A stretch of 64,000 bases of DNA from an uncultured bacterium (GTDB lineage Bacteria > Patescibacteriota > Minisyncoccia > UBA6257 > 2-01-FULL-56-20). The notes under the pieces were generated by a model, which was not told where the DNA came from, did no database searches, and saw only the letters and a program-made list of their open reading frames with translations. A program made the position numbers and the translations under genes. The stretch is from contig OY970358.1 in assembly GCA_963718575.1 (NCBI GenBank), positions 728,108-792,107 of the forward strand. Reading direction: 5' to 3'. Shown here piece by piece: positions 48,545-63,026 of the stretch (positions are counted from its first letter, which is position 1; each line of letters opens with the position of its first letter).

Positions 48545-50161
48545 ATGAAACATCTTCGACTGGTCATAAAATGTATTGCCATTGGGTTTTTTGCGTTGCT
48601 CATATTTTTCGCCCTTTCACCATTGGGGAAGATCGGCGTTCCCAAAAAGGCCGATGCCGATTCGCTGGATGCGTATCCGAGCGTCTGTCTCGGAGGATGG
48701 CAGAATCCCAGCAATGCTTCCGGCCCGCCGGACGTGCCGCCGGGAGACGATTCTTTTACGGGTGATAATTCCGCCGTGCTCGATCAGGCACAAGCGCAGA
48801 TATTTTGCGGGTCCTTCCAGGCGAGCGATGAATCCCAGACGCCGACCGCGGTCACTCTGCATTTTTCCTGGAATGTGATCTTTTCGAGCCAGGTATCGAA
48901 TGCAACAAGCAATGACCCCGGTGATCCCGAATGGAGCAGCGTACTTGATGCGACGAGCACTGCCACCTCCACGACCACGACTCCTGCACCGACACCGTTG
49001 ACGACAGCATCATCGTCGGACGATCAGAGTCAAAGCATCGATCCGTCCGCAACGAGTGCCGATACTTCTTCGGACAACTCCGGCGGTTCGCAGGACGGCT
49101 CGGTGGCGACCTCCACGCCTCCGCCGGCGACGGTGTCTCCGCCCGCGCCCGATTCATCGGATTCCGATACGAGCTCCACGTCATTCCTGCAAACCATTCT
49201 CAGCGACCCGCTCGGCCTTTTAATCCAAAAGACCTTTGCTCAATCGGTTGATAATGATTCCACTACGGTCGACACCTCCGCTGCCGACGATAGCTCCACT
49301 GTCACCATGGATGCTTCCACGACCACTGACGATTCTTCCGTCGATACCGCAGACGATTTCATTGATGTGAGCTACTCGCTCGACGGGACGACATGGATCG
49401 ATCTCGGACCGGTAAGCGAGTCCGACTGGCAGAACTATTCGGTGACGATCCCGATAAGTTCGTGGAGCGATATCAACAACCTGCAAGTTCAGCTGAGCCC
49501 GCTCATCACTTCCGATGCCCCCACTATATATTTGGATGGCATGTGGCTGGAGGTGGATTACAATAATTCCATCCTGAACGATATTGAGAATGTGATATCG
49601 GACATCTTGCCGACGGATACGCTCTCCACTTCCACCGCGCCCACGAATTCCCTCACGCCGCAGGATGCCACCGATCAGAATCCCGCGCCTGCGCCGCTTC
49701 CGCCTCCACCCCCGCCGATTCCTCAGCATCAGTACACATTCACCCTTCAGGGTCCGCAGTCCATAAAGGTGGGGACGCTTGCGTGGTATCCGCACAACGA
49801 TGCTTCGGGCAGCGCGCCGGTGGGACGGGCAGGGCTTGCCCCTACCGTGAGCCTTCCTGCCACCAATACGATCGAAGTGTCGGGATCATGTTCTGCGGCG
49901 TACTACACCATCCTTATATTTCCGGACGAGAATGATTACGAAAGCAATCCGTCGCTTGCGTTATATAACAACGCCAACAAGTGCGTGAACGGGAGCTTTA
50001 CGCAAATGATCACCGACCTCGATCTTCCGCCGCAACTCGCGAGCGGCATCTACTATCTCGTGGTGGCAAATCAGGGAGTGAAAGGACCATGGGTCCCTTA
50101 TCCGGAAACCTATCCGATCCAACTGAGCGGCGTGTCCAATAGTGCCTCATCATCGCAATGA
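48545..50161 (+). CDS. Membrane-anchored Ser/Thr/Asp-rich surface protein with C-terminal 2-Cys domain (hypothetical)
   Basis: TM helix, long S/T/D low-complexity regions, a poly-Pro stretch, and a C-terminal ~90-aa block (SGSCSAAYYTILIFPDENDY...NANKCVNG...GIYYLVVANQ) shared with 54736..55245. Confidence 0.6.
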   Translation: MKHLRLVIKCIAIGFFALLIFFALSPLGKIGVPKKADADSLDAYPSVCLGGWQNPSNASGPPDVPPGDDSFTGDNSAVLDQAQAQIFCGSFQASDESQTPTAVTLHFSWNVIFSSQVSNATSNDPGDPEWSSVLDATSTATSTTTTPAPTPLTTASSSDDQSQSIDPSATSADTSSDNSGGSQDGSVATSTPPPATVSPPAPDSSDSDTSSTSFLQTILSDPLGLLIQKTFAQSVDNDSTTVDTSAADDSSTVTMDASTTTDDSSVDTADDFIDVSYSLDGTTWIDLGPVSESDWQNYSVTIPISSWSDINNLQVQLSPLITSDAPTIYLDGMWLEVDYNNSILNDIENVISDILPTDTLSTSTAPTNSLTPQDATDQNPAPAPLPPPPPPIPQHQYTFTLQGPQSIKVGTLAWYPHNDASGSAPVGRAGLAPTVSLPATNTIEVSGSCSAAYYTILIFPDENDYESNPSLALYNNANKCVNGSFTQMITDLDLPPQLASGIYYLVVANQGVKGPWVPYPETYPIQLSGVSNSASSSQ

Positions 50162-50806: not shown

Positions 50807-52474
50807 ATGAGCATATCGATCGATCCAAAGAATGGCGTACGGCTGAGGCCGGCCCGTAAAACCGGCCGGGGGATTGCGGCGCTCATCATCGTACTCGAGG
50901 CGGTATTCTCCGTTTTTCTCTATATGTCGCTTGCGGAGAAGGTGTTTGTGGTGATCCCCGCCGCCGCCGCGCCGGGAGTCCCTGGTCTCATCGCGTATCA
51001 AGGCATGCTCACCGACACGTCGGGAAATCCGCTCGGCGGCGCGGGATCGGCCTACTGTTTCCGTTATTCCATTTGGGATTCGCAAACGAGCGGCAGCCAG
51101 CTGTGGCCTCAGCCCGCGCTCGGCGATGCATCGACCACGCCGTCGAATTCCACGACGACGGTGACCGACGGCGTGTTCAGCGATGAACTTGGCCGCACGG
51201 ACACGTTCGGCAGTCTCGACTTTGGCGCGGACACCACGGGGAGTTCGACATATTTTTTGCAGGTGCAGGTGAGCACCTCTTCGCTCACGTGCGCAACGGG
51301 GCTCGAGACGCTTTCTCCCCGCCAGCAGATCACGGCCGACGCATGGTCGCAGACTTCGCAATCGGTGTACGGCAATCAACTTCGCACTCTTGTCTCGAAT
51401 AACACCGTACAGCTTGGCACCGGCGCGGGCGTCGTTTCGGGATGGACCTTGCTTTCCCTCGACGTGGCGCATGGTTCCAGTGAGGCCGTCGGTGGGAGTT
51501 GCACGCAGAACGGCACGTTGTGGTACGACTCGACGCTCAACAAGGCGCTCGTGTGCGCGAACGATATCATCCAGCCGTTCTCGAACGGCACATCGAGCGT
51601 GACGAGCATCGGCACGAGCGGCACGAGCACGATACTCCTCAATAACGTATTTCTCTCCGCATACGCGAACCTTACGCTGAGCCAGAACGGGCAGACGATC
51701 AACTTCTCCGCGGCGGCGCCGGGAGGCGACGCGACGCTGTCGCGATGGGAGGATTATCTGTTGGGTACCAACACGACGGCAATAAGTCTTGCTCCTGCGG
51801 ATGCCTACTTCCAGCCATTTATTCTTCCCACTCCGGTCGCAGTGAGTAATATAAATCTTTTGAAGAGTTTCAGTTTTGGAATGCCGACCGCAACAAGCCA
51901 GGCATCGTCAGGATCGCAACGGTATTCTTATTCTCAGGGAATATCGCTCTTTAGTAGAGTGACGGCTGGCGGCGCCACTTCCCAGATGAGCGTAGTTACC
52001 ACGGCGAGTATGGGATTCACGATGCTCTTTTCCTATACTTCAACGTCCGAAATGCTAAGTGCGACATGGGTAACTAATAGCACCGGTGGAACGACGAGCT
52101 GGGGGACCACATCAAACTCCAATAACTTATCGAGCTATTGGATGTCCGCAAAATATTTTCCCGTACCGCTGGCGACAACTCTTACCGCCGGCGAATACTG
52201 GATGGGGTATGGAATGTCGAGTACGACTGCGAATGCAAACGTCAATGTAACCATCTTATCCATAAACCAGATCGGTTCCAGTATCGGGGCGAATACATTC
52301 GGGGTGCTTGGCAATACATCGGCGGGTTCACGCGCAAGCCTTTTCAACGGCGGTCAAGGTTATGGCTCTGTCCTTGTTGGAGGCGTTGTTACTAACAACA
52401 CAATGCCAATCAGTACCATCAGCGCCTCTAACGCCACCATGCAGCTTCAATACTTCAACTTCGCCGACTACTAA
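50807..52474 (+). CDS. Membrane-anchored Ser/Thr-rich surface protein with GWTL (WxL-like) motif
   Basis: TM helix LIIVLEAVFSVFLYMSLA, extensive S/T/G-rich sequence, and 'VVSGWTLLSLDVAHGS'. Confidence 0.5.
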   Translation: MSISIDPKNGVRLRPARKTGRGIAALIIVLEAVFSVFLYMSLAEKVFVVIPAAAAPGVPGLIAYQGMLTDTSGNPLGGAGSAYCFRYSIWDSQTSGSQLWPQPALGDASTTPSNSTTTVTDGVFSDELGRTDTFGSLDFGADTTGSSTYFLQVQVSTSSLTCATGLETLSPRQQITADAWSQTSQSVYGNQLRTLVSNNTVQLGTGAGVVSGWTLLSLDVAHGSSEAVGGSCTQNGTLWYDSTLNKALVCANDIIQPFSNGTSSVTSIGTSGTSTILLNNVFLSAYANLTLSQNGQTINFSAAAPGGDATLSRWEDYLLGTNTTAISLAPADAYFQPFILPTPVAVSNINLLKSFSFGMPTATSQASSGSQRYSYSQGISLFSRVTAGGATSQMSVVTTASMGFTMLFSYTSTSEMLSATWVTNSTGGTTSWGTTSNSNNLSSYWMSAKYFPVPLATTLTAGEYWMGYGMSSTTANANVNVTILSINQIGSSIGANTFGVLGNTSAGSRASLFNGGQGYGSVLVGGVVTNNTMPISTISASNATMQLQYFNFADY

Positions 52475-52479
52475 ATTCC

Positions 52480-53205
52480 ATGCAACCACAGATCATCGTC
52501 CCTGATTACAAAGGGAGACACAACCAGGACATCGGGAAATCGCAAGAGCGGCTATTACAGTCCAAGGCATATCAAGATCTCTCCACGATCATCATCTGCC
52601 CCACGCGCGGGCAGGTGTCGGCCAAGGTGGTGCAGAGCTGGATGGGACTCATGAAGCCGATGAACCAAAAAGTGATCGGGCCGTTGTTTGCGATCGCCAT
52701 GGAAGTGGGGGAGGCATACAATTCCATGATCGAAATGATACTCGGGAATCCGGAGCTCTCCACTTGGAAATATATCCTGACGATCGAAGAGGACAATATG
52801 CCGCCGCCGGACGGACTTCTTAAGCTATACGAAGACATGGATCAGTACGACGTGGTCGGCGGATTGTATTGGACGAAAGGAGAGGGCGGCCAGCCGATGA
52901 TCTATGGCGATCCCGCCGTGGAACCGATCAACTTTATTCCGCAGATCCCCGAGACCGAAGGGCTTCAGCCGGCGAACGGCCTCGGTATGGGATTCAATCT
53001 TTTTAAGATGGAACTATTCAAAGACCCTAAATTGCCGCGCCCGTGGTTCCGCACTGTACAGGAATTCATTCCGGGGCAGGGCGCGCGGGCTTACACGCAG
53101 GATTTATACTTCTACGAGAATGCCGGAAAGCTTGGCTATAAATTTGCCTGCGACACGCGCGTGAAGGTCGGCCACTATGATGCGGCGATGGACGTCGTAT
53201 GGTGA
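52480..53205 (+). CDS. Putative GT-A-fold glycosyltransferase
   Basis: 'STIIICPTRGQVSAKVVQSW' (Rossmann start), 'YILTIEEDNMPPPDGLLKL' (DxD-like EED), and a C-terminal 'QDLYFYENAGKLGYKFACDTRVKVGHYD'. Moderate pattern-level match only. Confidence 0.4.
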   Translation: MQPQIIVPDYKGRHNQDIGKSQERLLQSKAYQDLSTIIICPTRGQVSAKVVQSWMGLMKPMNQKVIGPLFAIAMEVGEAYNSMIEMILGNPELSTWKYILTIEEDNMPPPDGLLKLYEDMDQYDVVGGLYWTKGEGGQPMIYGDPAVEPINFIPQIPETEGLQPANGLGMGFNLFKMELFKDPKLPRPWFRTVQEFIPGQGARAYTQDLYFYENAGKLGYKFACDTRVKVGHYDAAMDVVW

Positions 53206-53217
53206 TACAATAAATCA

Positions 53218-54228
53218 ATGAAAAAAAATCTTCGCGTCATCCTGATCGTCATTCTCGCGCTTGTCGTCGGCGTCGCGGTGGGATACTTTGTGAACGGGCT
53301 CGTCGCCCCGCCATCGCCGGTCGTCGCGGTGCCTCAAGAACCTTCTCCAGTGCCGATGGTTCAGCCGCTCTCCACCTCCACGACGGGCTACGGGTTGTTG
53401 AATGGCGACGTCGCCTGGCAGAGCGGTCAGCACTTCATTGTCAACTTCGAACCGCTTCGTGCCCAGATCGCTTCCATCACCCAGGAGTATCCCCAGAACA
53501 CCTATATCTATTTTGATTATCTGAACAGCTCGGCCAACTTTGGCACCAACGCGCGAATGCTCTTTACGGCGGCCAGCACCGTCAAGGTTCCGCTCGCAAT
53601 GGCGGTCTATAAAATGGCGGAAGAAGGAAAATTGGACATGAACTCCAATTACACCCTTCAACAATCCGACCTTGACAGCAATTTTGGCACGCTCTACAAG
53701 GCCGGTGCCGGAGCGACGTACACTATCCAGCAGCTCGTTTCCATCATGCTTGAACAATCGGACAATACCGCCATGAATGCGCTTCTTTCCGCGCTGAACA
53801 ATATCGGGGTAGCCGATCCGTTCGCGGACGTCTATCAGCAGATGGGGTGGAATAATTTTCCCACAATCGGTCAGTCCACCAACTATGCGGATTACATAAA
53901 CATCGACGTCCATACGCTTTCCAACATGTTCCTTGCTCTTTATAATGCGAGCTACGACAGTCCTGTCGATTCGCAGGCGATCCTTTCATATCTTACGCAG
54001 ACGCCATTTAGCGATGAGATCGTCGCGGGCGTGCCTTCAAGCACTATCGTGGCCCATAAGATCGGCACCTCGGCCGACAATAACACCTATTCCGATTGTG
54101 GTATCGTGTATGCTCCGTCGCGTCCATACATCCTGTGCGTGGGATCGAGCGGCGCGAGCGAACAATCGGCAGATCAGTTCATTTCGCAGGTATCCAAAGC
54201 CACCTACCAATACGTCATTAATAACTAA
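53218..54228 (+). CDS. Membrane-anchored class-A beta-lactamase-fold serine hydrolase (PBP/beta-lactamase-like)
   Basis: TM helix, then the SxxK motif (AASTVKVP), the SDN motif (EQSDNTAMN) and a KTG-like motif (HKIGTS). Confidence 0.65.
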   Translation: MKKNLRVILIVILALVVGVAVGYFVNGLVAPPSPVVAVPQEPSPVPMVQPLSTSTTGYGLLNGDVAWQSGQHFIVNFEPLRAQIASITQEYPQNTYIYFDYLNSSANFGTNARMLFTAASTVKVPLAMAVYKMAEEGKLDMNSNYTLQQSDLDSNFGTLYKAGAGATYTIQQLVSIMLEQSDNTAMNALLSALNNIGVADPFADVYQQMGWNNFPTIGQSTNYADYINIDVHTLSNMFLALYNASYDSPVDSQAILSYLTQTPFSDEIVAGVPSSTIVAHKIGTSADNNTYSDCGIVYAPSRPYILCVGSSGASEQSADQFISQVSKATYQYVINN

Positions 54229-54229
54229 C

Positions 54230-54739
54230 ATGAAACTCGACATTGCCTGCGGGCAGAACAAGCAGAAAGGATTCAAAGGGGTCGACATCGCGCCGGGGGA
54301 GAGCGTGGATTTTGTGTGGGACCTCGAGAAATATCCGTGGGAGCCGTTCAAGGATAATTCCTTCGACGAGATCTATGTGAGCCATTATGCCGAGCATACG
54401 AAAGACCTGATGAAGTTCATGAACGAGGTTTGGCGTATTTGCGAGAACGATGCCAAGGTGACGATCGTCGGGCCGTACTACACGTCCATCCGCGCATGGC
54501 AGGATCCGACACATACCCGCGTGCTTTCGGAAGCGACATGGCTTTATTACAACAAGGATTGGCGGAAAATGAACAAGCTCGATCATTATCCGATCACGTG
54601 CGATTTCGGCGTTCAGCAGATGACCGTGTTCTTTGCACCGCCGTGGGATAAAAAAACGGAAGAGGCGCGGCAGTTCGCGCAGCAGCATTATTGGAACGTG
54701 GTCTCCGACATCTGCGTCGAACTCAAAGTCATTAAATGA
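54230..54739 (+). CDS. Class I SAM-dependent methyltransferase (Methyltransf_11-like)
   Basis: Motif I 'LDIACGQNKQKGFKGVDI'; 169 aa. The ORF opens far upstream but the ATG at 54230 directly follows the hydrolase stop. Confidence 0.65.
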   Translation: MKLDIACGQNKQKGFKGVDIAPGESVDFVWDLEKYPWEPFKDNSFDEIYVSHYAEHTKDLMKFMNEVWRICENDAKVTIVGPYYTSIRAWQDPTHTRVLSEATWLYYNKDWRKMNKLDHYPITCDFGVQQMTVFFAPPWDKKTEEARQFAQQHYWNVVSDICVELKVIK

Positions 54740-55245
54740 AGCTTTCTGATCGCACCAATAGGGAATACCGCATCCTTGCGATCGCGATCGTTTTCTTCAT
54801 CGCCGGCGCAATATTTTTCTGGCATGACGCATCGTTGCCAACCTCACATTCTTCGCCGTCCGCCGGCGCGCCCGCACCGGCCGTTTCTGTCCAGTCCGCG
54901 AACGTCGCGCCGGGCCAGCAGATCGATCCCGATTTTGCAAAATTTCCTCCGCCTGCACAGTTCAGAACATTTGTGTACAATCAGAACGGGTTTAACAAGC
55001 TGTCGACGCTTTCGATCTCCTCAATGTGCAATGCGGCATACATGGCGATCCTGATCTTCCCCGTTGCCGTCGATTACCGGAGCGATATCAATGCCGCTGT
55101 CTACAACGATGCGTTTCCGTGCACCGCCGGCCAGACATTCACGCTCGCGATCACGACAAGCGACATCGCAACCGCGCCGTTCGGAACGTATTACTTTATT
55201 GTTGCGGATCAGGAGAAAAGCGGTGCGTGGTATAATCCAAGATAA
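54736..55245 (+). CDS. Membrane-anchored protein carrying the shared 2-Cys C-terminal domain (hypothetical)
   Basis: TM helix ILAIAIVFFIAGAIFFW. The C-terminal block 'SMCNAAYMAILIFPVAVDY...FPCTAGQ...GTYYFIVADQ' is homologous to the C-terminus of 48545..50161. Confidence 0.5.
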   Translation: MKLSDRTNREYRILAIAIVFFIAGAIFFWHDASLPTSHSSPSAGAPAPAVSVQSANVAPGQQIDPDFAKFPPPAQFRTFVYNQNGFNKLSTLSISSMCNAAYMAILIFPVAVDYRSDINAAVYNDAFPCTAGQTFTLAITTSDIATAPFGTYYFIVADQEKSGAWYNPR

Positions 55246-55247
55246 GC

Positions 55248-55679
55248 ATGAAGCGTGAAAGTATTTTCTTGTGGAAGGTCGCATGGGGTACGGCGGCGGC
55301 GATCGTCGTGGCGGGTCTGCTGTTTTTTAATTTCAACGATCTTGTGATGTGGGCAACGCTGAACAACCCGTTTCAGGGGCAGTGGTCGGTGGTGCAGCTT
55401 TCGGATGGAGAGATCCTCTACGGGCATCTTTCCGGCGTGACCGGAACGACGATTGGCTTGAGCGATGTCTATCTTTTGGACAAGATATCGCCGGAGCCCG
55501 CGACGCCCGCCATCTCAAGTTCGACCGGCATCACGATGGGGGCGGCGGCAGGAGCGCCTGCCGCTCAGCCGTTGCTTGTGCCCATAAGTGACACCCCTCA
55601 GCTTTTCATCAATCGCGCCGCCGTCCTTTATTTCAAATTCGTGACGCCGGACGATCCCGCGCTCCCGTATCTCCATTAA
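55248..55679 (+). CDS. Membrane-anchored hypothetical protein
   Basis: 143 aa with an N-terminal TM helix and a Pro/Ala-rich linker. Confidence 0.45.
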   Translation: MKRESIFLWKVAWGTAAAIVVAGLLFFNFNDLVMWATLNNPFQGQWSVVQLSDGEILYGHLSGVTGTTIGLSDVYLLDKISPEPATPAISSSTGITMGAAAGAPAAQPLLVPISDTPQLFINRAAVLYFKFVTPDDPALPYLH

Positions 55680-55715: not shown

Positions 55716-57065
55716 TTGTCTGCGGCTGTGAAAAAACGAATATTTTTTTTCATATTGATAGCGGTTGGACTGCTCTCCGGCGTTTCTCATGCGCAGGTGG
55801 TCCTTATCAACTCCTCTTCCACGGATTTTTTCCTCAGGGCGGAGACTGAAAGCATCGTTGGAAATTCGCAGTCGACGGACTTCGGTCTTTTTAACAGCGG
55901 GCAGACGCTTTCACTCCCGCTCATGTCATCGGCCGATTTTCAGATCTTTTCCGGGATCATCAAGCCGATCTTCCAGCCGGTGAAGCCGATCTATGCGCAG
56001 ATCCACTATCAATGGCGAAACGATAATGGCAGCGAAACCTCCGCCACTTCCGCGACGGGAGGAAGTGAAGATACTGTGCTCACCGGCCTCGCACAGAATT
56101 CCAGTATCCGCGTCCGGATGGAAATAACGAATTCCGGCGGTACGATCCTTTCCTATTCGTCGCAGTCGTTTCAGTTGCAATACGGTCAGTTGAGCACTAC
56201 CTGTTCCGCCATCTCGTCATGGACGGGGGTCGGCACCGCGAGCGCGGTATGGGCGATGTATAACTCGGGCAATCTGACCGACGGGCAGAATACCACAAAC
56301 ATTGCCACTTCCACCGGCGGCGTGGTAGACGCGAATCACACCTTTATCGTAGCGAACGCCGGAGTGAAGACCACGACGAGCACGGTGAGCGCGATCTCCG
56401 TGCCAAGCGATTCGTTCATCGAGATGGAGTTCGATATCCAGGCGCTTTCCAGTTCCACGGCGGGTGCCACCTATTGTTTCCGGCTTACCAACGCCGGTTC
56501 GGCAACCAACTTTTCATATTCGCAATATCCGCAGGCGACGCTTTCCAGTCAGTCGATAACGCTCACGCTCAATACTGCGACCGTGAACTTGCCGGCGCTC
56601 GCTCCGGGGGTCGCCGGTTCCGCGACGACCACGGCGACCGTGAGCGTGACCGGGGCCTCGAGTGGATATACGCTATCCATCAACCGCAATTCCGCAACCT
56701 CGACGCTTACTTCGGGCACGATCCAATTCCCCGACGCTTCCGCATGGAACCCTTCGGGATCGAGCTGTGCATCCGGACAGGGGAATGGCACGACGACGCC
56801 CGGCAATACATTTTCGTTCCGCGTGGCGTCTTCCGGTACCACCGCAAACTATTGCTCGTTCTGGTGGGGTGCGAGTGACACCGGTGGAACGGCATTATAT
56901 GCGGGCGTGCCCACTTCCTCCAAGATCATCGTCAACTCCACATCGTCGGCGTCGCAAAACGGTACCACTGCGGTAACGATCATATATAGCGCGAATGCGC
57001 CATTGAGCCAGGAAGCGACAAGCTATACGGGAAGCGTTACCATCACTGCGATTGCGAACCCGTAG
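55716..57065 (+). CDS. Secreted Ser/Thr-rich WxL-like surface protein (long paralog)
   Basis: Signal peptide (TTG/GTG start ambiguity). C-terminal ~190 aa are homologous to 57119..57778 (LPALAPG...SINRNSATSTLTSGTIQFPDA...YTGSVTITAIANP). Confidence 0.55.
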   Translation: MSAAVKKRIFFFILIAVGLLSGVSHAQVVLINSSSTDFFLRAETESIVGNSQSTDFGLFNSGQTLSLPLMSSADFQIFSGIIKPIFQPVKPIYAQIHYQWRNDNGSETSATSATGGSEDTVLTGLAQNSSIRVRMEITNSGGTILSYSSQSFQLQYGQLSTTCSAISSWTGVGTASAVWAMYNSGNLTDGQNTTNIATSTGGVVDANHTFIVANAGVKTTTSTVSAISVPSDSFIEMEFDIQALSSSTAGATYCFRLTNAGSATNFSYSQYPQATLSSQSITLTLNTATVNLPALAPGVAGSATTTATVSVTGASSGYTLSINRNSATSTLTSGTIQFPDASAWNPSGSSCASGQGNGTTTPGNTFSFRVASSGTTANYCSFWWGASDTGGTALYAGVPTSSKIIVNSTSSASQNGTTAVTIIYSANAPLSQEATSYTGSVTITAIANP

Positions 57066-57118
57066 TTATCCACAGGTATGATAGTTTGAAGGATTGAGAA
57101 TATGCTATTATCTAAGTA

Positions 57119-57778
57119 ATGGAAAAATCACTGGTCGGGCCTTCTTTGAAAGTGTTCTCGTTCGTCGTATCTATAGCGGTGTTGGTCGGTGTCATTGCAA
57201 ATTTTGGAGGAAAAATTTTCACGCCGACGGCGCATGCATTGACATCCACTTCGACCACGCAAACGATCAATGTGACGGTCAATCAAGTCATCACGCTTTC
57301 GCTTGGTACCTCCACGTTAAGCCTGCCGGCTCTTACGCCGGGCGCTCCGGTCACCGCAACGACGAGCGCGACGGTCACCACAAACGCATCTGCGGGATGG
57401 CAGTTGGATTTCAACCGCAACAGTGCCACATCGACGATCGCATCCGGCACCATAACCTTCCCTGATGCAACTCCCTTCAACGGTTCCAACGCAACGACAA
57501 CAGCGAACCTTACGAATAGCGGACAGGTGCTCGCATTCCGCGCCTATCAGACGGGTACGAGCGCGGGTATCTACAATGCGACAACCTGGGGAGCAAACGA
57601 TGCAGCAAGCGCCATGTGGGCCGGTTTTCCCACCTCGACCGTTGTTGCGGTGAGCACAAGCACATATATCGGTAGCGCACAGACCGTTGTATACGGGGTC
57701 TATGCCAACGCACCGGCCACACAGGTTGCCACCAACTATACCGGAACGATCACTGTCACAGCGATAGCGCTTCCGTAA
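57119..57778 (+). CDS. Secreted WxL-like domain protein
   Basis: Signal/TM, then 'ASAGWQLDFNRNSATSTIASGTITFPDA', the first WxL-like motif in its usual context. C-terminal 'YTGTITVTAIALP'; T/S-rich. Confidence 0.55.
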   Translation: MEKSLVGPSLKVFSFVVSIAVLVGVIANFGGKIFTPTAHALTSTSTTQTINVTVNQVITLSLGTSTLSLPALTPGAPVTATTSATVTTNASAGWQLDFNRNSATSTIASGTITFPDATPFNGSNATTTANLTNSGQVLAFRAYQTGTSAGIYNATTWGANDAASAMWAGFPTSTVVAVSTSTYIGSAQTVVYGVYANAPATQVATNYTGTITVTAIALP

Positions 57779-57808
57779 GGCGGGTGTGGTGTGGTATCCT
57801 TATCCAAT

Positions 57809-58714
57809 ATGAAAAAGAACGCAGGGGTTCTGTCTCTCACCTTCGCCGCGGTTTTAAGCTTATTTTTTTTGTTCCCCAATCAAAGTCACGCGCAAGTAGG
57901 AATATCCCTGTTTCCGATAAAATTCGATGTCACTGTTGCGCCGGGTCAGACCTATTCCGATACGGTCACCGTCATCAATCCGAACAATTTCCCGATCGGC
58001 GTCCAGCCGGAGGTGGAGAACATCGCAGGCGGCAACCAGGGTTCGATCGATCTGACCGACACCGACATCCCGCACGGACTTTCCGCGTGGATCAACCTCA
58101 ATGAGGCGGAATTCACGCTTGCTCCGCAACAACAGCTGCAGATACCATTCACAATCACGGTGCCGGCTGACGGCGAGCCGGGCGGCCATTATGGCGCGAT
58201 CCTTTTCCGCGGACTTTCTGCGGGATCTTCGACCAATGCCGGGGTCGGTATCTCCGGCAGGGTGGGGACGGTCATTCTTTTGAATGTGCCGGGCGCATCC
58301 TATGCCACCGGAAATGTGGCGAGTTTCGCTGGCCCTGCCGCGTATGTCTCCCACGGTCCGTTCCCGTTCACATTCACGGTGAACAACACCGGTAACACGC
58401 ACTTTACTCCACAGGGACAGATCGCGTTGAGCGGTCCGTTCTTTGGCAATGCCGTGGTGCCATTCACCTCCGGAATCGTTTTCCCCGGTTATGATCGGAC
58501 GTTCACCGCAAGCTGGCCGGGGCGCTACGCGTTCGGCCCCATCACGGCGACGCTTTCGCTTACCATACCCGACAACACGAGCACGGTGGTCGAGACCATC
58601 ACATTCTTTGCCTTTCCATGGCAGGAGACGCTGATCGTGCTCGTCATTCTTCTTGTCCTTTTCTTTATCTTTAAGACCTGGAAGAAGAATTTCAAGATTG
58701 TGCGGGTAAAGTGA
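57809..58714 (+). CDS. DUF916 (CscA)-like cell-surface protein with C-terminal TM anchor
   Basis: Signal peptide, then 'ISLFPIKFDVTVAPGQTYSDTVTVINPNNFPIGVQ...ITVPADGEPGGHYGAILF' matching the DUF916 pattern (YFDL..PG..QTL.V.L.N.S...I ... GG.Y). C-terminal helix LIVLVILLVLFFIF followed by basic residues. Confidence 0.55.
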   Translation: MKKNAGVLSLTFAAVLSLFFLFPNQSHAQVGISLFPIKFDVTVAPGQTYSDTVTVINPNNFPIGVQPEVENIAGGNQGSIDLTDTDIPHGLSAWINLNEAEFTLAPQQQLQIPFTITVPADGEPGGHYGAILFRGLSAGSSTNAGVGISGRVGTVILLNVPGASYATGNVASFAGPAAYVSHGPFPFTFTVNNTGNTHFTPQGQIALSGPFFGNAVVPFTSGIVFPGYDRTFTASWPGRYAFGPITATLSLTIPDNTSTVVETITFFAFPWQETLIVLVILLVLFFIFKTWKKNFKIVRVK

Positions 58715-58726
58715 TACAGTAAGAAG

Positions 58727-59941
58727 GTGAAGAAGGTAATATGCAGCGCCATATTCTTCGGGGCATTGTTTCCGGTTCTCATTGCGAGCGCCCAGATTTA
58801 TAATGCGGCGAATTCTATGCAGTTGACGGTCACGGTGGTATATCCTCCGGTCGCTCCCGCTGACCTTAATGCCACGACAACATCGAGTTCGGAGATCGAT
58901 CTTTCTTGGGTGACTACCAGTACGAATCAGGCCGGATTTTCCATAGAAGAGTCGGTGGGGAACGATGCTCTTTTTACACCGATCGACACGGTCGGGCCGG
59001 CGGCCAGGAGTTATTCACGCACCGGACTTTTGCCGAGCACGACCTATTTCTATCGGGTGAGGGCGTATAATGGCGCGGGTTCAAGTGCGCCGTCCAACGA
59101 AGCCGCCGCAACGACATCCGCTGCTCCTTCGGGCAATACCGGCGGCGGATCGGGTGCCGGCGGTTCTTCCGGTGGCGGTGGAGGAGGAGGCGGATCGTCA
59201 TATGTGCCGCCGGTCTTCCAGACGTCGGCGATGTTCAGCGGTATCGCATATCCATTGAGCACGGTCACGCTCCTTGAAAATGGCCAGGTTGCCGCCGTGA
59301 CGCAATCGGGGCCTGATGCAACATTCCAAATAAACCTTGCGAATCTTCCGGCCGGAACATATAACTTTGGGGTCTCTGCAAAGGATCCGCAGGGAAACCA
59401 TTCGGCCATCCAGACGTTTTCAAGCACCCTCACTCCCGGCGCGGAGACGGTGATCAGCGGGATATTTTTCCCGCCTACCATCACCGCAGATAAAGTGCAG
59501 GTGAAGCGGGGGGATGTGCTTACATTATTCGGATACGCCGCGCCACAAGGGCAGGTTGCCGTGATGGTCAATTCCCTGAATGAGATCTCGGCGACCGTGA
59601 CATCGACCGCGTCGGGGCTATGGACCTATCCGGTGAGCACCGACCAGCTGGAGATGGGAGGGCACACGGCGCATGTGTGGGAAGCAGCCGACGGCAACGT
59701 GACGCCGGATTCGGAAATATTCTCATTCACGGTCGGCAATACCGACGTTGCTGCGCCGCCGGTATCGGCGGGTCCGTCGAAAGGCGATGTGAACGGAGAC
59801 GGGAAAGTAAACCTCCTTGATTTTTCGATCATGGCCTATTGGTGGGGAAAGTCGAATCCGCCGGCGACGTTGCGGCTCGACGGCAAACCGGAGATCGACC
59901 TTGCCGATTTCAGCATCATGGCATATTACTGGACCGGCTGA
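58727..59941 (+). CDS. Secreted FN3-domain protein with C-terminal type-I-like dockerin
   Basis: GTG start and signal peptide. FN3 region (PADLNATTTSSSEIDLSWV...STTYFYRVRAYNGAGSSAPS). Poly-Gly linker, Ig-like region, and C-terminal 'GDVNGDGKVNLLDFSIMAYWW...LDGKPEIDLADFSIMAYYW', two dockerin Ca-binding repeats. Confidence 0.7.
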   Translation: MKKVICSAIFFGALFPVLIASAQIYNAANSMQLTVTVVYPPVAPADLNATTTSSSEIDLSWVTTSTNQAGFSIEESVGNDALFTPIDTVGPAARSYSRTGLLPSTTYFYRVRAYNGAGSSAPSNEAAATTSAAPSGNTGGGSGAGGSSGGGGGGGGSSYVPPVFQTSAMFSGIAYPLSTVTLLENGQVAAVTQSGPDATFQINLANLPAGTYNFGVSAKDPQGNHSAIQTFSSTLTPGAETVISGIFFPPTITADKVQVKRGDVLTLFGYAAPQGQVAVMVNSLNEISATVTSTASGLWTYPVSTDQLEMGGHTAHVWEAADGNVTPDSEIFSFTVGNTDVAAPPVSAGPSKGDVNGDGKVNLLDFSIMAYWWGKSNPPATLRLDGKPEIDLADFSIMAYYWTG

Positions 59942-59942
59942 C

Positions 59943-60845
59943 ATGAAAAAAACATTCCCGGTGATAGTGTTTGCGATCGCGCTCATGTTTCCCTGGCGTT
60001 CATTCGCGTCCGTGATGACCATCGCGCCATCGCCCACGAACTCCGATATGATCGTGGTCAGCCTTGATACGCAGGGGGATTCCATCAATGCGATACAGGG
60101 ACATTTTACATTTGATACAAACGCATTTTTTGTGAATGAGGTGAGTGACGGAAATTCCATCGTCAATTTCTGGGTCGAGGCGCCGGCGTTTTCAAACACC
60201 TCCGGCACGTTGGATTTTGCGGGGATCATTCCCGGAGGGGAAGTGACAGCTGATGGAGTCATTGCCACGATCGGCATCACCCCGCGGGGATCGGTTGCGA
60301 CGTCGGGCTTTGCGCTCGTTTCCGCGCAGGCACTTTTGAATGACGGGAACGCGACGCCGTCGGACCTTTCCGTGGCAAGCAAGCCATTTCCGCTCGTGGC
60401 CGGAAGTGTTCCGCTGATAGGCCAGAACTCACTCGCGCCCGATCCGTTCACGCCACAGGTCGGCCGGGATCCGGGCATTTTCAACGGACAGTATTTCGTC
60501 GCCTTTACCGCCACGGACCAGGGATCCGGTATCGACCACTACAATGTGCTCGAGGTGCCGGCAGGGACGAAGATATCGACATCATCCGACTGGCAATGGG
60601 CGACCTCCCCTTATCTTCTCCGCGATCAGACGCTTTCAAGCGATATTTATGTGCGTGCGTTCGACGAGTCGGGAAATTTCCGCACGGAAGAGATCCCCGC
60701 AAAACATAAAAAGCCGGGGGGGTCGCTCCCGTGGGGGGATATCGGAATGTCCGCCGTAGCCATAGTGTTACTATTATTAGTGATAGGACTTATCCGCAAG
60801 CGTCGAACATGGAAAAGGAAACGATCCGCAGGAAATTTTGCGTAG
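59943..60845 (+). CDS. Membrane-anchored cohesin-domain protein 1
   Basis: Signal peptide MKKTFPVIVFAIALMF. Cohesin-like block 'DSINAIQGHFTFDTNAFFVNEVSDGNSIVNFWVEAP...GTLDFAGII...DGVIATIGITP'. A second beta domain contains 'SGIDHY'. C-terminal TM AVAIVLLLLVIGLI + RKRR. Starts 2 nt after the dockerin gene stop. Confidence 0.6.
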   Translation: MKKTFPVIVFAIALMFPWRSFASVMTIAPSPTNSDMIVVSLDTQGDSINAIQGHFTFDTNAFFVNEVSDGNSIVNFWVEAPAFSNTSGTLDFAGIIPGGEVTADGVIATIGITPRGSVATSGFALVSAQALLNDGNATPSDLSVASKPFPLVAGSVPLIGQNSLAPDPFTPQVGRDPGIFNGQYFVAFTATDQGSGIDHYNVLEVPAGTKISTSSDWQWATSPYLLRDQTLSSDIYVRAFDESGNFRTEEIPAKHKKPGGSLPWGDIGMSAVAIVLLLLVIGLIRKRRTWKRKRSAGNFA

Positions 60846-62233
60846 CACTTGGGGCCGTCGCGCTGTGTGTGGTTCTTTGGGGTGCCCATGACGCCCACGC
60901 GGCGATGCTTTCCCTCTCTCCGCAATCGGGAACCTATTTTACCGGGAGAAGCTTCAGCGTCTCCGTGGAAGTTTCCTCGCCCGGAGAGGCGATCAATGCG
61001 GTACAGGGCGAGGTCACTTTCCCGAAGAATGATCTCGAAGTGCTTTCGGTCTCTAAAGCGAATTCCGTTCTGAATCTCTGGGTGCAGGATCCGACATTTT
61101 CAAACCAGGATGGTACGGTTGATTTTGCGGGAGTCGTCCTGAGTCCCGGGTTTCAAGGCGCCGCCGGAAATGTAATTACGATCACCTTCGAAGCGAAGAG
61201 TGCCGGCGTCGCTCCGCTCTCGATCGATCCGGCGTCGGTGCTTGCGAATGACGGAAGCGGAACGGATATCTTGACCGCCACGCAGGGCGCTTCGTTCACG
61301 ATGGCTCCGCTTTCTACGGTGCCGGGTCCCCCGGCCACGGGAAACGTGAATATGGATATGGCATCGAGTACGGTGTCACCGTCGACCGTCATTACCTCGA
61401 GCCCGCTCATCACAAACGGAGCATGGTACAACATCAACCAGGTCACCTTTAACTGGAATGTTCCGGCGGGCGCCGACGGCATCAATTACATGATATCGAC
61501 CGACCCCAACCTCCACCTCCCGGACGTGAATCAAGGATTGGTCTCGCAGACCTCGTATGATCTTTCGAACTTTGCCGACGGCGTCTGGTACTTTTTTGTG
61601 AGCTTCGAAAATGGCAGTGTATGGTCGCCGCCGGCGGTGGAGAAGCTGATGCTTGATCGCACCCCGCCCGATTCATTTGTCATCACGCGGGAAGATACCG
61701 ACCTAACGGATCCCCAGCCGGTGTTCTCGTGGCTCGCGACCGACGGGATGTCTGGCATCGACCACTACGAAGCGAAGATCGGCGACGGTGACTGGTTCAA
61801 TCCTGCGAACTTTCAGAGTGGAAATTCATTGTATGCGTTGCCGGTTCAGTCACCGACGGCCGGCCGCTGGCTCACGGTGCGGGCGTTCGACAAGGCAGGG
61901 AATTATACCGATGCCTCGATCAGTTTCCGCGTGCTCGCGCCGGAGGCATCATGTGCGGGAGCCGCGACGTTATGCGCACTTTCCGAATTCTTCGTGCAGT
62001 GGAGCTGGTTGATGGTGTTCATGCTGATCATCCTTCTTATCGTGGCATACGGTTTTATCTATCATCTTCTACGGTGGAAGAAGCGTTCGTCGAAAGTATT
62101 GAAAAAATTCGAAGATATATTGAGCGGGGATCTCGGCGGACCTCACCTTTTAGCCGAACAGCCCGAACTCGAAAAAATCGTTCAGCCCGTTGTTGACGAT
62201 GTGAGGGAAGGGGGAGAAGGACCGAAGGAATAG
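60809..62233 (+). CDS. Membrane-anchored cohesin-domain protein 2
   Basis: Signal peptide. Cohesin-like block 'EAINAVQGEVTFPKNDLEVLSVSKANSVLNLWVQDP...GTVDFAGVV...NVITITFEAKSAG'. 'SGIDHY' beta domain shared with protein 1. C-terminal TM LMVFMLIILLIVAYGFIY + RWKKR. Overlaps the upstream gene by 37 nt. Confidence 0.6.
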   Translation: MEKETIRRKFCVALGAVALCVVLWGAHDAHAAMLSLSPQSGTYFTGRSFSVSVEVSSPGEAINAVQGEVTFPKNDLEVLSVSKANSVLNLWVQDPTFSNQDGTVDFAGVVLSPGFQGAAGNVITITFEAKSAGVAPLSIDPASVLANDGSGTDILTATQGASFTMAPLSTVPGPPATGNVNMDMASSTVSPSTVITSSPLITNGAWYNINQVTFNWNVPAGADGINYMISTDPNLHLPDVNQGLVSQTSYDLSNFADGVWYFFVSFENGSVWSPPAVEKLMLDRTPPDSFVITREDTDLTDPQPVFSWLATDGMSGIDHYEAKIGDGDWFNPANFQSGNSLYALPVQSPTAGRWLTVRAFDKAGNYTDASISFRVLAPEASCAGAATLCALSEFFVQWSWLMVFMLIILLIVAYGFIYHLLRWKKRSSKVLKKFEDILSGDLGGPHLLAEQPELEKIVQPVVDDVREGGEGPKE

Positions 62234-62279
62234 CGGCGCAGCTGGCAATACGGGCTTATTTTTGTTACTATTCCGATAT

Positions 62280-63026
62280 ATGTTGAGCATTTCCCTTCGT
62301 GCCGAAGACATTTTCCACATTGGCTCATGGCCGGTGACGAATGCGGTACTCCTGGCATTTTTCGTTCTTGTATTGCTTACCATGCTCGCGGTTATTTTAA
62401 AGAGCAGGCTTAAGACAATTCCGGGGATGCTCCAGAACATCGTTGAAGCGATCATAGAGGGTGCACTGGATTTGATGGATTCGGTATTGGGAAGTCGTAA
62501 GCAATCAGAAAAATATCTACCGCTTGTTCTCACCATTTTCCTTTTTGTGCTTTTTTCAAACTGGTTCGGACTTGTGCCGGGCGTCGGGTCGATCGTGATT
62601 GGCCACGGCGCGAGCGCGGTACCCCTGCTCCGATCGCCTGCAAGCGATCTCAACTTTACGCTCGCACTCGCATTGATCGCTGTCACGATGGTGAATATCT
62701 TTGGTATTGCGGCGATGGGGATGAAAGAGCGCGTCTCGGTTTTTTTCAATTTCAGCAGTCCGCTCAAGTTTTTCGTGGGCATACTTGAGCTTATCTCAGA
62801 ATTTGCTAGAATTATCTCGTTCACGTTCCGTCTCTTCGGCAACGTGTTCGCCGGCGAGGTGCTGCTCGCGATCATGGCGCTCCTTGTGCCATATCTCGTT
62901 CCGTTGCCGTTCATGTTTTTGGAAATATTCGTCGGATTCATACAAGCATTCATTTTCGGAATGCTTACCCTCGTATTCGTTGCGTTGGCGGTCACCCCTC
63001 ACGAAGGTGAGGAGGCGGGTCACTGA
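62280..63026 (+). CDS. atpB: F0F1 ATP synthase subunit a
   Basis: Multi-TM protein with conserved 'FRLFGN' and 'GEVLLAIM' (Arg-containing TM4) motifs. The ORF opens at 62262; the ATG at 62280 (MLSISL...) is equally possible. Confidence 0.85.
   Translation: MLSISLRAEDIFHIGSWPVTNAVLLAFFVLVLLTMLAVILKSRLKTIPGMLQNIVEAIIEGALDLMDSVLGSRKQSEKYLPLVLTIFLFVLFSNWFGLVPGVGSIVIGHGASAVPLLRSPASDLNFTLALALIAVTMVNIFGIAAMGMKERVSVFFNFSSPLKFFVGILELISEFARIISFTFRLFGNVFAGEVLLAIMALLVPYLVPLPFMFLEIFVGFIQAFIFGMLTLVFVALAVTPHEGEEAGH

Follow-up and report, generated by a model that had tools for sequence, protein, structure and literature searches.

The gene cluster described here probably encodes the Pam pilus of CPR bacteria in a distant, Paceibacteria-type variant: a chaperone-dependent, usher-less filament that would be formed by donor-strand exchange on a single-membrane cell. 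The cluster lies in the window, i. e. the whole stretch of 64,000 nucleotides that was analysed, and the three open reading frames reported in the initial annotation are indeed present on its plus strand at 55716-57065 (P1, 449 amino acids), 57119-57778 (P2, 219 amino acids) and 57791-58714 (P3, 307 amino acids). The closest homologues belong to Candidatus Paceibacterota, i. e. to the CPR, in agreement with the CPR-like genome assumed before. CPR bacteria are thought to be attached to host cells, and surface appendages are their likely contact organs. The Pam pilus itself was recognized as late as 2026, in Ca. Mycosynbacter amalyticus (preprint by Troman et al. 2026, doi 10.64898/2026.03.03.709456), and it has been reported mainly from the Saccharimonadia and the Microgenomatia (doi 10.64898/2026.03.03.709456). 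The system in the window had been regarded as undescribed; its closest relatives are, however, covered by this preprint and by NCBIfam models.

The paralogs P1 and P2

P1 and P2 are exported proteins, and they share a C-terminal domain whose homologue in the Pam pilins is the truncated Ig-like C-terminal domain (CTD). The two copies are identical in 80 of 172 positions (47%, BLASTP E 3e-31), which bears out the common domain proposed earlier. In P1, the alignment to P2 covers aa 279-449 (56550..57062, plus strand) and stops exactly at the C-terminus, '...YTGSVTITAIANP'. This strictly terminal position is a family trait: the domain extends to the last residue of the protein in 184 of the 192 family members, of which 101 are small and 91 are large forms. 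The pilin-like family comprises 379 clusters at 50% identity, and every organism-named member or locus belongs to the CPR; the 32 homologues of P2 are unannotated CPR proteins.

The large paralog P1 (55716..57065) consists of a signal peptide, N-terminal repeats, a middle region and the Pam-pilin-like domain. Three PamT-like repeats of the S-S-T-D-F type are located at aa 34-75, and the triple S-S-x-[D/N]-[F/Y] repeat is also found in genuine PamT and in one paralog per cluster elsewhere. The middle region of about 190 aa is without a family match. P1 matches no Pfam or NCBIfam model; the A3 HMM of the family matches its aa 262-449 (E 9.6e-46).

The small paralog P2 (57119..57778) begins with a signal peptide, in which A-x-A at aa 38-40 is conserved; this is followed by a pre-domain strand and by the truncated Ig-like domain. 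In Foldseek searches with its AF2 model (pLDDT 77), the best folds were chaperone-usher pilins, TasA and archaeal donor-strand filaments, at modest scores. Directly N-terminal to the domain core lies a candidate donor strand, TQTINVTVNQVITLSL (aa 47-62, 57257..57304, plus strand). Its pattern is alternating: positions 50, 54, 58, 60 and 62 are hydrophobic in 90-98% of 53 diverse members. The monomer model leaves aa 44-57 unstructured, at low confidence, and the candidate strand takes the same position as the donated linker strand of the Pam pilins. We infer from this pattern that aa 47-62 act as a donor strand. P1 has Q, T or S at the hydrophobic positions and thus is without the donor-strand pattern. 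We propose that P2 is the polymerising pilin and that P1 is a tip or adhesin subunit that solely accepts a strand.

It is conceivable that P1 and P2 are unrelated Ig-like surface adhesins that are neighbours of a DUF916 gene by chance and have no specific physical partnership with its product. Ig-like beta-sandwiches are common among secreted proteins, and the modest fold-search scores of P2 would be compatible with such an origin. We consider this extremely improbable: in all seven CPR loci examined (the window, L001, L002, L003, L017, L018 and L019), at least two pilin-like genes are found beside at least one P3-like gene, the intergenic gaps in the window cluster are tight (12-53 nt), and the shared domain is strictly C-terminal.

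Relation to Pam pilins and to WxL proteins

The relationship of P1 and P2 to the Pam pilins becomes visible when profiles of the whole family are used. The alignment of the 192 CTDs matches the three Pam pilin CTDs of L002 with an hhalign probability of 96% (E 4.6e-9, 132 columns), and the A3 alignment does so with 95.5%, as compared to just 40% for the A2 alignment, which contains close relatives only. The A3 HMM matches two Pam-pilin-C proteins of the L002 pam operon (E 4.7e-6 and 2.7e-5). L002 is a genuine Saccharibacteria operon: it encodes a PamT protein (301.7 bits with the NCBIfam model NF058579, cut-off 240 bits), two further Pam pilin C proteins, a PamR-like protein and a fibre-like protein, and its chaperone slot is occupied by P0104, a homologue of P3 (E 8e-30) that bears the NCBI name DUF916. 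Of 53 family members, 28 match NF058581 (CPR_Pam_pilin_C, cut-off 55 bits) at E<=1, the best one at 1e-8, and five match PamT. The close family member from L003 aligns with positions 3-146 of the 148 of NF058581 (17.4 bits, E 0.0036). P1, its C-terminal fragment and P2 do not match NF058581 at E<=10, and the curated cut-off is not reached; likewise, neither P1 nor P2 matches NF058579. Because there is no NCBIfam Pam match for P1 and P2 at E<=10, their assignment to the Pam system draws on profile-profile and transitive evidence and is probable. Among the other proteins of the cassette, P3 to P6 have no match in NCBIfam, including NF058578 (PamR), and a phmmer search with the PamR-like protein of L002 found no PamR-like gene in the window.

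The window cluster resembles the Pam system in several respects: it encodes a homologous truncated Ig-like pilin CTD and a PapD/FimC-like chaperone with a C-terminal TM helix, an usher is absent, P3 occupies the slot of PamC/PamD, one subunit has PamT-type N-terminal repeats, ATP synthase genes are adjacent, and the host belongs to the CPR. On the other hand, the proteins score below every NCBIfam Pam cut-off, and the lineage is Paceibacteria. Moreover, the apparent major pilin consists of an N-terminal strand and a single domain, whereas that of Pam has a two-domain NTD-linker-CTD structure; there is one chaperone gene in the window as compared to two in M. amalyticus, no PamR is recognizable by sequence, and the chaperone gene is followed by genes for a conserved Fn3/Big/dockerin protein and for two cohesin-like TM proteins. 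A related cassette is thus present in Paceibacteria and Magasanikbacteria, where it is invisible to the current curated models. Its parts list differs from that of Pam in that the pilin is minimal and has a single domain, PamR is lacking, and a dockerin/cohesin-like trio is conserved.

The initial annotation interpreted P1 and P2 as WxL-like paralogs that share a GW(Q/T)L motif. By definition, WxL proteins contain the Trp-x-Leu motif in two conserved copies, the first of which is preceded by a D-x-R and GTxAG turn (PMC9772566). P2 contains AGWQLDFNRNSATSTIASGTITFPDA, but P1 reads GYTL at this position, and in the family the first motif is G-[Y/W/F]-x-L after T-N, with the glycine alone being invariant. 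At the position of the second motif the family has Y/I/V/F-T-A (V in P2, I in P1); the second Trp is absent, and the D-x-R/GTxAG turn was not seen in the family. PF13731 (WxL) was not detected at E<=10 in P1, P2, the 30 A1 relatives or the other family proteins scanned singly, nor was it among the precomputed matches of the family proteins from the A3 search, which amounts to about 80 members without a match; a genuine Enterococcus WxL protein, used as positive control, scores 121-244 bits. The hhalign probability of the P1/P2 family against genuine WxL proteins is 3-4%, and the solved WxL chain 9i25_A is not among the best 50-60 fold matches of P2. Thus, Pfam, profile-profile comparison, motif definition and fold search all fail to support P1 and P2 as WxL-family proteins.

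These results bear on the possibility that the cluster encodes a true Csc/WxL complex, with P1 and P2 carrying divergent domains for non-covalent peptidoglycan binding and with P3 as CscA. Some observations would fit: P3 scores above the threshold of PF06030 (DUF916), and the client C-terminal motif is in the register of WxL motif 2 (Y at P-12, hydrophobic at P-8, T at P-7, aromatic at P-6, terminal Pro). In addition, actinobacterial proteins encoded next to DUF916 genes are homologous to WxL (hhalign 95%, E 1.7e-8), and at the C-terminus they are weakly connected with the CPR family (E 4e-4, 28 columns). The negative PF13731, hhalign and fold-search results, the missing second Trp, the poorly conserved first one, the lack of the D-x-R/GTxAG turn and of an LPXTG protein all speak against this reading, which at the family level is largely refuted and which we regard as very unlikely. 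An LPXTG protein or a sortase is a frequent, non-essential component of Csc/WxL clusters. In the window, the motif scan found no LP.[TSA]G motif in P1 to P6. Unlike in the WxL clusters (PF13731, PF06030, PF11797; PDB 9i25, 9i1y), the client domain is not detectably WxL, W-x-L motifs and an LPXTG or sortase component are missing, and PF11797 is not among the families listed for P3. Moreover, the small and large WxL domains of Firmicutes reportedly differ in topology, whereas the corresponding pair in the window is closely similar (47% identity). What does hold is the Csc-like layout noticed before: as in Csc/WxL clusters, a small domain-only protein and a large protein with the domain at its C-terminus are accompanied by an anchored DUF916 partner.

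The anchored protein P3 and the proposed assembly

P3 (57791..58714, plus strand) is a member of the DUF916/WxLIP family with two Ig-like domains, a PapD/FimC-like fold and a C-terminal membrane anchor. Its 307 codons include those for a signal peptide, and the real start is probably the ATG at 57809, which would give a protein of 301 aa as in the homologues. The DUF916-type protein with a TM anchor (CscA architecture) recognized in the initial annotation is therefore upheld: P3 matches PF06030 (DUF916/WxLIP_PGBD) with E 1.8e-8 and 34.9 bits at a gathering score of 27.3, the model is found in 42 of 46 relatives, and the AF2 model (pLDDT 90.8) contains a TM helix at aa 277-300 (LIVLVILLVLFFIFKTWKKNFKIVRVK, 58619..58690, plus strand) that is followed by a Lys/Arg-rich cytoplasmic tail. 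A conserved hairpin at about aa 141-160 is modelled with lower confidence. Of the profiles suggested for verification, PF06030 was thus positive and PF13731 was negative; DUF3324 (PF11797) is neither among the matches of P3 itself nor among the 25 most frequently matched of 36 families found in the 46 relatives at E<=1. The structure predictions were divided in the same way, with WxLIP being the best fold for P3 and P2 resembling donor-strand pilins rather than WxL. For P3, the top Foldseek matches were the WxLIP structures 9i25_C and 9i1y (E 1.7e-10; 262 columns for 9i25_C), followed by the chaperones CfaA, CsuC, DraB, FimC, Caf1M and SafB (E 1e-8 to 1e-7). The profile of the P3 family matches 9i25_C, the solved Enterococcus WxLIP, with E 4.4e-8, and the A5 HMM aligns to the E. 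faecium WxLIP (positions 41-259). P3 thus has the hallmarks of the WxL/WxLIP partner proteins: PF06030, a second Ig-like domain, a TM helix and WxLIP as the best PDB match.

The relatives of P3 in the database are overwhelmingly unnamed or labelled as CPR. Since they diverge from one another to as little as about 23% identity and the family shares only about 22-26% identity with the Enterococcus proteins, a recent transfer from Firmicutes seems unlikely. The view that DUF916 clusters are a speciality of the Lactobacillales and Listeria is outdated: tblastn detected DUF916 genes on plasmids of Actinobacteria, where they are annotated, and homologues on plasmids of Deinococcus, where they are not, and CPR proteins have already been labelled DUF916 by NCBI.

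We propose the following model for the assembly of the filament. After Sec export, P3 would sit on the outer face of the cytoplasmic membrane, where it would capture subunits: a beta-strand of the conserved hairpin (about aa 141-160) would enter the groove that is open in the subunit CTD. The N-terminal strand of an incoming P2 (aa 48-56) would then displace the chaperone strand in the preceding subunit, and the fibre would grow from its base. P1 would be incorporated first and would thus become the distal, adhesive subunit; we place it at the tip because of its PamT-type N-terminal repeats, its extra middle domain and the lack of a donor-strand pattern.

The same set of genes could also serve a display function of the WxL/WxLIP type without any filament: P3 would permanently hold P1 and P2 by strand complementation as in 9i25, and the N-terminal domains of P1 would simply face outward. 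The closest relative of P3 in both sequence and structure is indeed a WxLIP bound to WxL, and the combination of a small, a large and an anchored partner protein is typical of WxL clusters; furthermore, the cluster has a single chaperone-like gene and no terminator, and polymerisation is a prediction. However, the client domain is homologous to the CTDs of Pam pilins, which do polymerise, the conserved amphipathic pre-domain strand of P2 would have no obvious job in a static complex, and PamT-like and strand-bearing family members occur in the same cluster. We therefore regard permanent display as unlikely and prefer the polymerising, Pam-like filament.

Such a filament would have much in common with the chaperone-usher pili (Fim, Pap, Csu, CFA/I, Caf1). 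These provide the best or near-best folds for both the subunit P2 and the chaperone P3, and donor-strand complementation followed by exchange would be the shared principle; moreover, the combination of an N-terminal domain with a C-terminal pilin domain in P1 corresponds to the logic of the adhesin FimH. In contrast to these pili, the window system is without an outer membrane or usher, and its chaperone is membrane-anchored rather than soluble. An outer membrane is absent from CPR cells (doi 10.64898/2026.03.03.709456), no usher match was found among the scanned cassette and upstream proteins with Pfam and NCBIfam, nor was significant sequence similarity to chaperone-usher pili detected. TasA, TasA-like filaments, archaeal bundling pili, threads and cannulae are chaperone-free donor-strand filaments; unlike the window cluster, they have no PapD-like chaperone. 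A sequence link to the TasA-type and archaeal filaments was not found, and the SipW signal-peptidase context is absent.

The Pam-type chaperone scores above the DUF916 threshold, and no structure matches it better than the solved Enterococcus WxLIP-WxL complex, which suggests that the Pam and the WxL/Csc systems share a mechanism based on strand complementation. It is tempting to speculate, if only tentatively, that a single family unites the membrane-anchored PamC/PamD-type chaperones of CPR bacteria with the DUF916/WxLIP (CscA) proteins found in Firmicutes, Actinobacteria and Deinococcus. Pam pili and Csc/WxL clusters would then have diverged from one ancient system of single-membrane bacteria that combined an anchored chaperone with strand-deficient subunits. 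On this view, WxL proteins would not be simple modules for peptidoglycan binding but pilin-like subunits that donor-strand complementation keeps in place and possibly also polymerises. The link between the Pam and WxL systems through the chaperone appears to be unreported, as the main text of the preprint contains neither DUF916 nor WxL (doi 10.64898/2026.03.03.709456). The P3-type chaperone provides a testable bridge from the CPR pilus to the WxL/Csc clusters, which have long been enigmatic in lactic acid bacteria, enterococci and Listeria, and to their unannotated actinobacterial relatives.

The downstream genes

Three further genes follow on the plus strand. P4 (404 aa, 58727..59941) is a secreted protein with an Fn3 domain (E 5.1e-10), a bacterial Ig-like domain (Big_13 and Big_6 near threshold) and a C-terminal dockerin-like Ca-binding repeat, DVNGDGKVNLLDF, that reaches 22.4 bits with Dockerin_1 (PF00404), at a threshold of 22.9. 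Orthologues of P4 are encoded at the same place, directly 3' of the chaperone gene, in L001, L003 and L019, and the L003 orthologue covers positions 1-53 of the 57 of the dockerin profile. P5 (300 aa from the ATG at 59943, 59943..60845) combines a cohesin-like beta-sandwich (PF00963, 20.2 bits as compared to 24.1), a weak OmpL47-type domain and a C-terminal TM anchor, i. e. a hydrophobic segment followed by a basic tail. P6 (474 aa from the ATG at 60809, 60809..62233, in a reading frame that opens with the GTG at 60731) is the second cohesin-like protein (19.7 bits as compared to 24.1); it has an OmpL47-type domain (E 7.9e-5) and a hydrophobic segment near the C-terminus. P5 and P6 are paralogous (E ~1e-20), and orthologues of both are conserved. 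Of the cohesin-dockerin operon postulated immediately downstream, the conserved dockerin/cohesin-like trio is thus real, with dockerin and cohesin scores that are all below the Pfam thresholds.

The dockerin-like end of P4 and the cohesin matches of the membrane-anchored P5 and P6 are reminiscent of the cellulosome-type scaffolds; in contrast to these, the three matches are sub-threshold, and the cassette encodes no carbohydrate-active enzyme. The linkage of a pilus cassette to cohesin-dockerin proteins has not been described before. One may speculate that P4, together with the TM-anchored P5 and P6, stands in for PamR as a base anchor or accessory. The tentative one-family reading of the chaperones would also predict that in Paceibacteria and Magasanikbacteria a cohesin-dockerin anchor takes the place of PamR and is mechanically coupled to the pilus cassette.

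The cluster adjoins ATP synthase genes, as do the pam operons, which consistently co-localise with them (doi 10.64898/2026.03.03.709456). A reading frame for an a-subunit-like protein of 254 aa, the putative first gene of the ATP synthase operon (62262..63026, plus strand), opens 29 nt past P6. Its identity is assigned by synteny with L001, where a PF00119 gene at the equivalent place is followed by the genes for the c, b, delta, alpha, gamma and beta subunits.

Relationship of the gene cluster to the Pam pilus

A distant Paceibacteria form of the CPR Pam pilus is the best explanation for the gene cluster. The observation made in the initial annotation is real, and the cluster is not categorically new since the Pam system has recently been described. 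It widens the range and the parts list of this system, and it exposes a link from the chaperones of Pam pili to the WxLIP proteins that Gram-positive WxL clusters encode. We found no report of this link in the searchable literature: a search with DUF916 and CPR terms retrieved no paper containing DUF916, and the combination of WxL with donor-strand terms yielded only a 2013 review that mentions WxL once.

As had been proposed, three closely packed ORFs are present on the + strand: P1 (55716-57065, 449 aa), P2 (57119-57778, 219 aa), and P3 (57791-58714, 307 aa), with gaps of 53 nt between P1 and P2 and of 12 nt between P2 and P3. Since the homologues of P3 have 300-302 aa, the true start of P3 is probably the ATG at 57809. 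The closest homologues are found in Candidatus Paceibacterota MAGs, thus assigning the organism to the CPR; its GC content is about 0.55. The suggested paralogy of P1 and P2 is borne out by the roughly 170-aa domain that they have in common at the C-terminus (47% identity, E 3e-31). Only P2 contains the GW(Q/T)L motif that had been reported for both proteins, whereas P1 reads GYTL; across the family, the glycine alone is fixed and is followed by Y, W or F.

This domain defines a family of 379 clusters at 50% identity in an exhaustive profile search. It ends at the last residue in 184 of 192 members, which are either small (101 proteins of up to 300 aa) or large (91 proteins reaching about 2,500 aa), some of the latter with N-terminal LamG/DUF2341 domains. 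In all CPR loci examined (the window, L001, L002, L003/4, L017, L018, and L019), at least two family members adjoin at least one P3-like gene. Pfam and NCBIfam scans at E<=10 gave nothing useful for P1 and P2, and the Pfam scan of 30 relatives resulted in scattered chance matches with no WxL, SCPU or TasA domain. Sequence searches with P2 and a diverse family alignment, in a PDB copy that lacks PamA and PamB, yielded chance matches only; a third homologue search with a diverse alignment recovered no more than 57 proteins, without any annotated family; and a profile of close relatives detected only seven loci in genome contigs, all of them close CPR loci. A regular expression for the C-terminal signature, written with the sequences already known and hence descriptive only, selected 24 of 830 ORFs, each of which lies beside a WxLIP-like gene.

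The link to the Pam pilus comes from release 20 of NCBIfam, which holds the models NF058581 (Pam pilus system pilin subunit), NF058579 (CPR-type pilus protein PamT), and NF058578 (PamR). Among 53 diverse family members, 28 match NF058581 at E<=1, the strongest of them at 1e-8, and five match the PamT model; P1 and P2 of the window match none of the three. A 2026 preprint (doi 10.64898/2026.03.03.709456) reports cryo-EM structures of thin filaments from Ca. Mycosynbacter amalyticus, a Saccharibacterium: PamT is a single-domain tip pilin, PamR is an RbmA-like anchor, and PamC and PamD are FimC/PapD-like chaperones that, unlike their Gram-negative counterparts, have a C-terminal TM helix. The Saccharibacteria locus L002, which was reached through P0104, a homologue of P3 (E 8e-30) that NCBI names DUF916, is a genuine pam operon: it encodes PamT (301.7 bits vs 240) and a pair of Pam pilin C proteins (165-176 bits vs 55), as well as PamR-like and fibre-like proteins, and its chaperone slot is filled by P0104. 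The C-terminal domains of the three Pam proteins of this locus align to the CPR family with 96% probability (hhalign, E 4.6e-9, 132 columns). Moreover, ATP synthase genes are reported to be consistent neighbours of the pam operon (doi 10.64898/2026.03.03.709456), and an ATP synthase operon is located 3' of the window cluster, with an a-subunit-like ORF from 62262 and the full operon seen in the syntenic locus L001.

In contrast to the two chaperone genes of the described Pam system, the cluster has one, and here three further conserved genes directly follow it. A PamR-like gene was not detectable in the window by sequence searches. The position of the trio P4-P6 directly 3' of the chaperone gene is shared by three lineages, two of which are Paceibacterota and Magasanikbacteria. 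P4 contains Fn3, one bacterial Ig-like domain, and a dockerin-like repeat that scores below threshold (22.4 vs 22.9 bits), whereas P5 and P6 are paralogous, TM-anchored and cohesin-like, again below threshold (about 20 vs 24.1 bits). The main text of the preprint (doi 10.64898/2026.03.03.709456) contains neither cohesin nor dockerin, Paceibacteria, DUF916 or WxL.

Large proteins are encoded next to the cassettes in L003 (1-4114, - strand), L018 (9563-11485), and L002 (8154-10700): those of L003 and L018 are similar to the "phage head spike fibre domain" protein of L002 (E ~1e-8), and the three agree with the "tail fibre-like protein" described as conserved next to pam operons (doi 10.64898/2026.03.03.709456). 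Directly adjoining the cassette of the window, no fibre-like gene was observed. The cassettes of L017 (the whole locus) and L018 (3651-8696) are enlarged to three genes each of the pilin-like and chaperone-like types; that of L017 adjoins an IS110 transposase as well as a DUF2341/LamG-repeat protein of 1,898 aa. One complete CPR chromosome (OY970354.1, 829,201 bp) carries two separate family-member loci, L021 near 166 kb and L026 near 422 kb.

P3 and the WxLIP proteins

The initial call of P3 as a DUF916/CscA-like protein was correct: PF06030 (DUF916, now WxLIP_PGBD) matches with 34.9 bits, above the gathering score of 27.3, and the C-terminal TM anchor is there as well, a hydrophobic helix that leads into a Lys/Arg tail. 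In the AF2 model (pLDDT 90.8), P3 consists of two Ig-like domains and a TM helix (aa 277-300), with a conserved hairpin of lower confidence at about aa 141-160. The top Foldseek matches are WxLIP bound to a long WxL protein (9i25_C, E 1.7e-10) and WxLIP alone (9i1y); next come chaperones with two domains from chaperone-usher pili (CfaA, CsuC, DraB, FimC, Caf1M, and SafB). At the sequence level, the P3 family profile also matches 9i25_C (E 4.4e-8), and the family HMM aligns to Enterococcus WxLIPs (E 3.4e-20 and 2.4e-11), spanning both Ig-like domains of the E. faecium protein, as well as to plasmid-borne DUF916-like genes of Actinobacteria and Deinococcus. Thus, separate fold searches of the subunit P2, the best folds of which are donor-strand pilins, and of P3 lead to two partners of one type of machine, a strand-deficient subunit and a strand-donating chaperone. 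WxLIP binds WxL (PMC10599100; also the entry title of 9i25), and AF2 predicts that a hairpin strand of WxLIP is inserted into WxL and completes its sandwich (PMC10599100). This predicted insertion is the principle of chaperone-subunit complementation.

WxL domains and the question of common ancestry

The assignment of P1 and P2 to the WxL proteins is not supported. PF13731 found no match at E<=10 in P1, P2, 30 close relatives, and the other family proteins scanned singly, and the precomputed domain is absent from all proteins of the third homologue search. As positive controls, tblastn of P3 against plasmids identified Enterococcus "DUF916 and DUF3324 domain-containing protein" genes flanked by "WxL domain-containing protein" genes; the five WxL proteins obtained score 121-244 bits with PF13731. 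The comparison of the CPR family with genuine WxL proteins gave probabilities of only 3-4% (hhalign), and a profile of 192 sequences performed no better. WxL domains are defined by two W-x-L motifs and a D-x-R/GTxAG turn, and they are always C-terminal (PMC9772566); the CPR family shares only the C-terminal position. Both groups have a common C-terminal register: Y at P-12, a hydrophobic residue at P-8, T at P-7, an aromatic residue at P-6, and a terminal Pro.

The link from WxL to unannotated genes beside actinobacterial DUF916 genes is strong: by hhalign, their products are WxL homologues (95%, E 1.7e-8), and an Arthrobacter protein matches Pfam WxL at E 5.5e-4. These genes are located directly upstream of the DUF916 genes (L005:5181-5837, L007:4302-4811, L011:4101-4727, L013:3067-3711, and L015:3055-3564, and, as the C-termini of proteins, L008:2777-4807, L014:1867-3807, and L016:1267-3630). 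Motif 1 (V.VTD.R...GW) is present and the second Trp is absent, and their C-termini, e.g. GTYSATLTVTAI in Embleya, resemble the CPR family ending NYTGTITVTAIALP. However, the step to the CPR family is weak (E 4e-4 to 1e-3, last 28 columns), as is that to Pam (E 1.3e-3). Since these links between the Pam/CPR and WxL/actinobacterial client domains (E 4e-4 to 1.3e-3) are confined to the last strands, common ancestry of the subunits is only suggestive, whereas that of the chaperone/WxLIP component is well supported. A recent lateral transfer from Firmicutes was rejected on the basis of the divergence and the breadth within the CPR.

The actinobacterial hosts are Agromyces, Arthrobacter, Clavibacter, Cellulosimicrobium, Streptomyces, and Embleya. 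Their WxL homologues are missed by the current Pfam WxL model and are annotated as "hypothetical" or "RICIN domain", with no annotation listed for L008 and L016. Deinococcus plasmids carry DUF916-like genes annotated as "hypothetical" (L009:3941-6397 and L012:3978-6424; P3 family HMM E ~1e-35), flanked by unannotated genes for proteins of about 290 and 190 aa and by a gene for a protein of about 1,010 aa. The 290-aa proteins contain the motifs GGFKLQVQRDN and ATLTYTL, reminiscent of the CPR family, and have no significant profile match.

Proposed subunit roles and organization of the cassette

The 16 residues that precede the domain core of P2 (aa 47-62, TQTINVTVNQVITLSL) show a strictly alternating hydrophobic pattern, and positions 50, 54, 58, 60, and 62 are hydrophobic in 90-98% of the 53 diverse members. 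In the AF2 monomer, aa 44-57 are unstructured with low confidence. The donor linker of Pam occupies the same position (doi 10.64898/2026.03.03.709456). P1 has Q, T or S at the corresponding positions; it carries just past the signal peptide a triple repeat (55815-55940, + strand, P1 aa 34-75; S-S-T-D-F / S-T-D-F / S-S-A-D-F) that resembles the threefold S-S-S-N-Y of genuine PamT at its N-terminus, and in L017, L018, and L003 one paralog of each cluster also has such repeats. From the strand pattern of P2 and the PamT-like repeats of P1, which lacks this pattern, we infer that P2 would be the polymerising pilin and P1 the tip subunit. P2 may then be a minimal subunit of Nte and CTD, built like the classical Fim/Pap pilins, and P1 a PamT-type protein with its inserted, unannotated domain of about 190 aa as a putative adhesin.

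The longest ORFs of P5 (59817-60845) and P6 (60731-62233) overlap their upstream neighbours. P5 likely starts at the ATG at 59943, 1 nt past the stop codon of P4, and P6 at the ATG at 60809, overlapping the end of P5 by 37 nt. The same overlap is present in L001, and this arrangement suggests translational coupling along the cassette.

An upstream block (50807-55679) is also kept in L001. It encodes a Ser/Thr-rich protein of 555 aa, which has a TM segment at its N-terminus, and two small TM proteins of 169 and 143 aa; none of the three had a match in the Pfam scan. A region paralogous to the 169-aa protein lies within 48545-50158, and ORFs of 241, 336, and about 170 aa are interspersed in the block.
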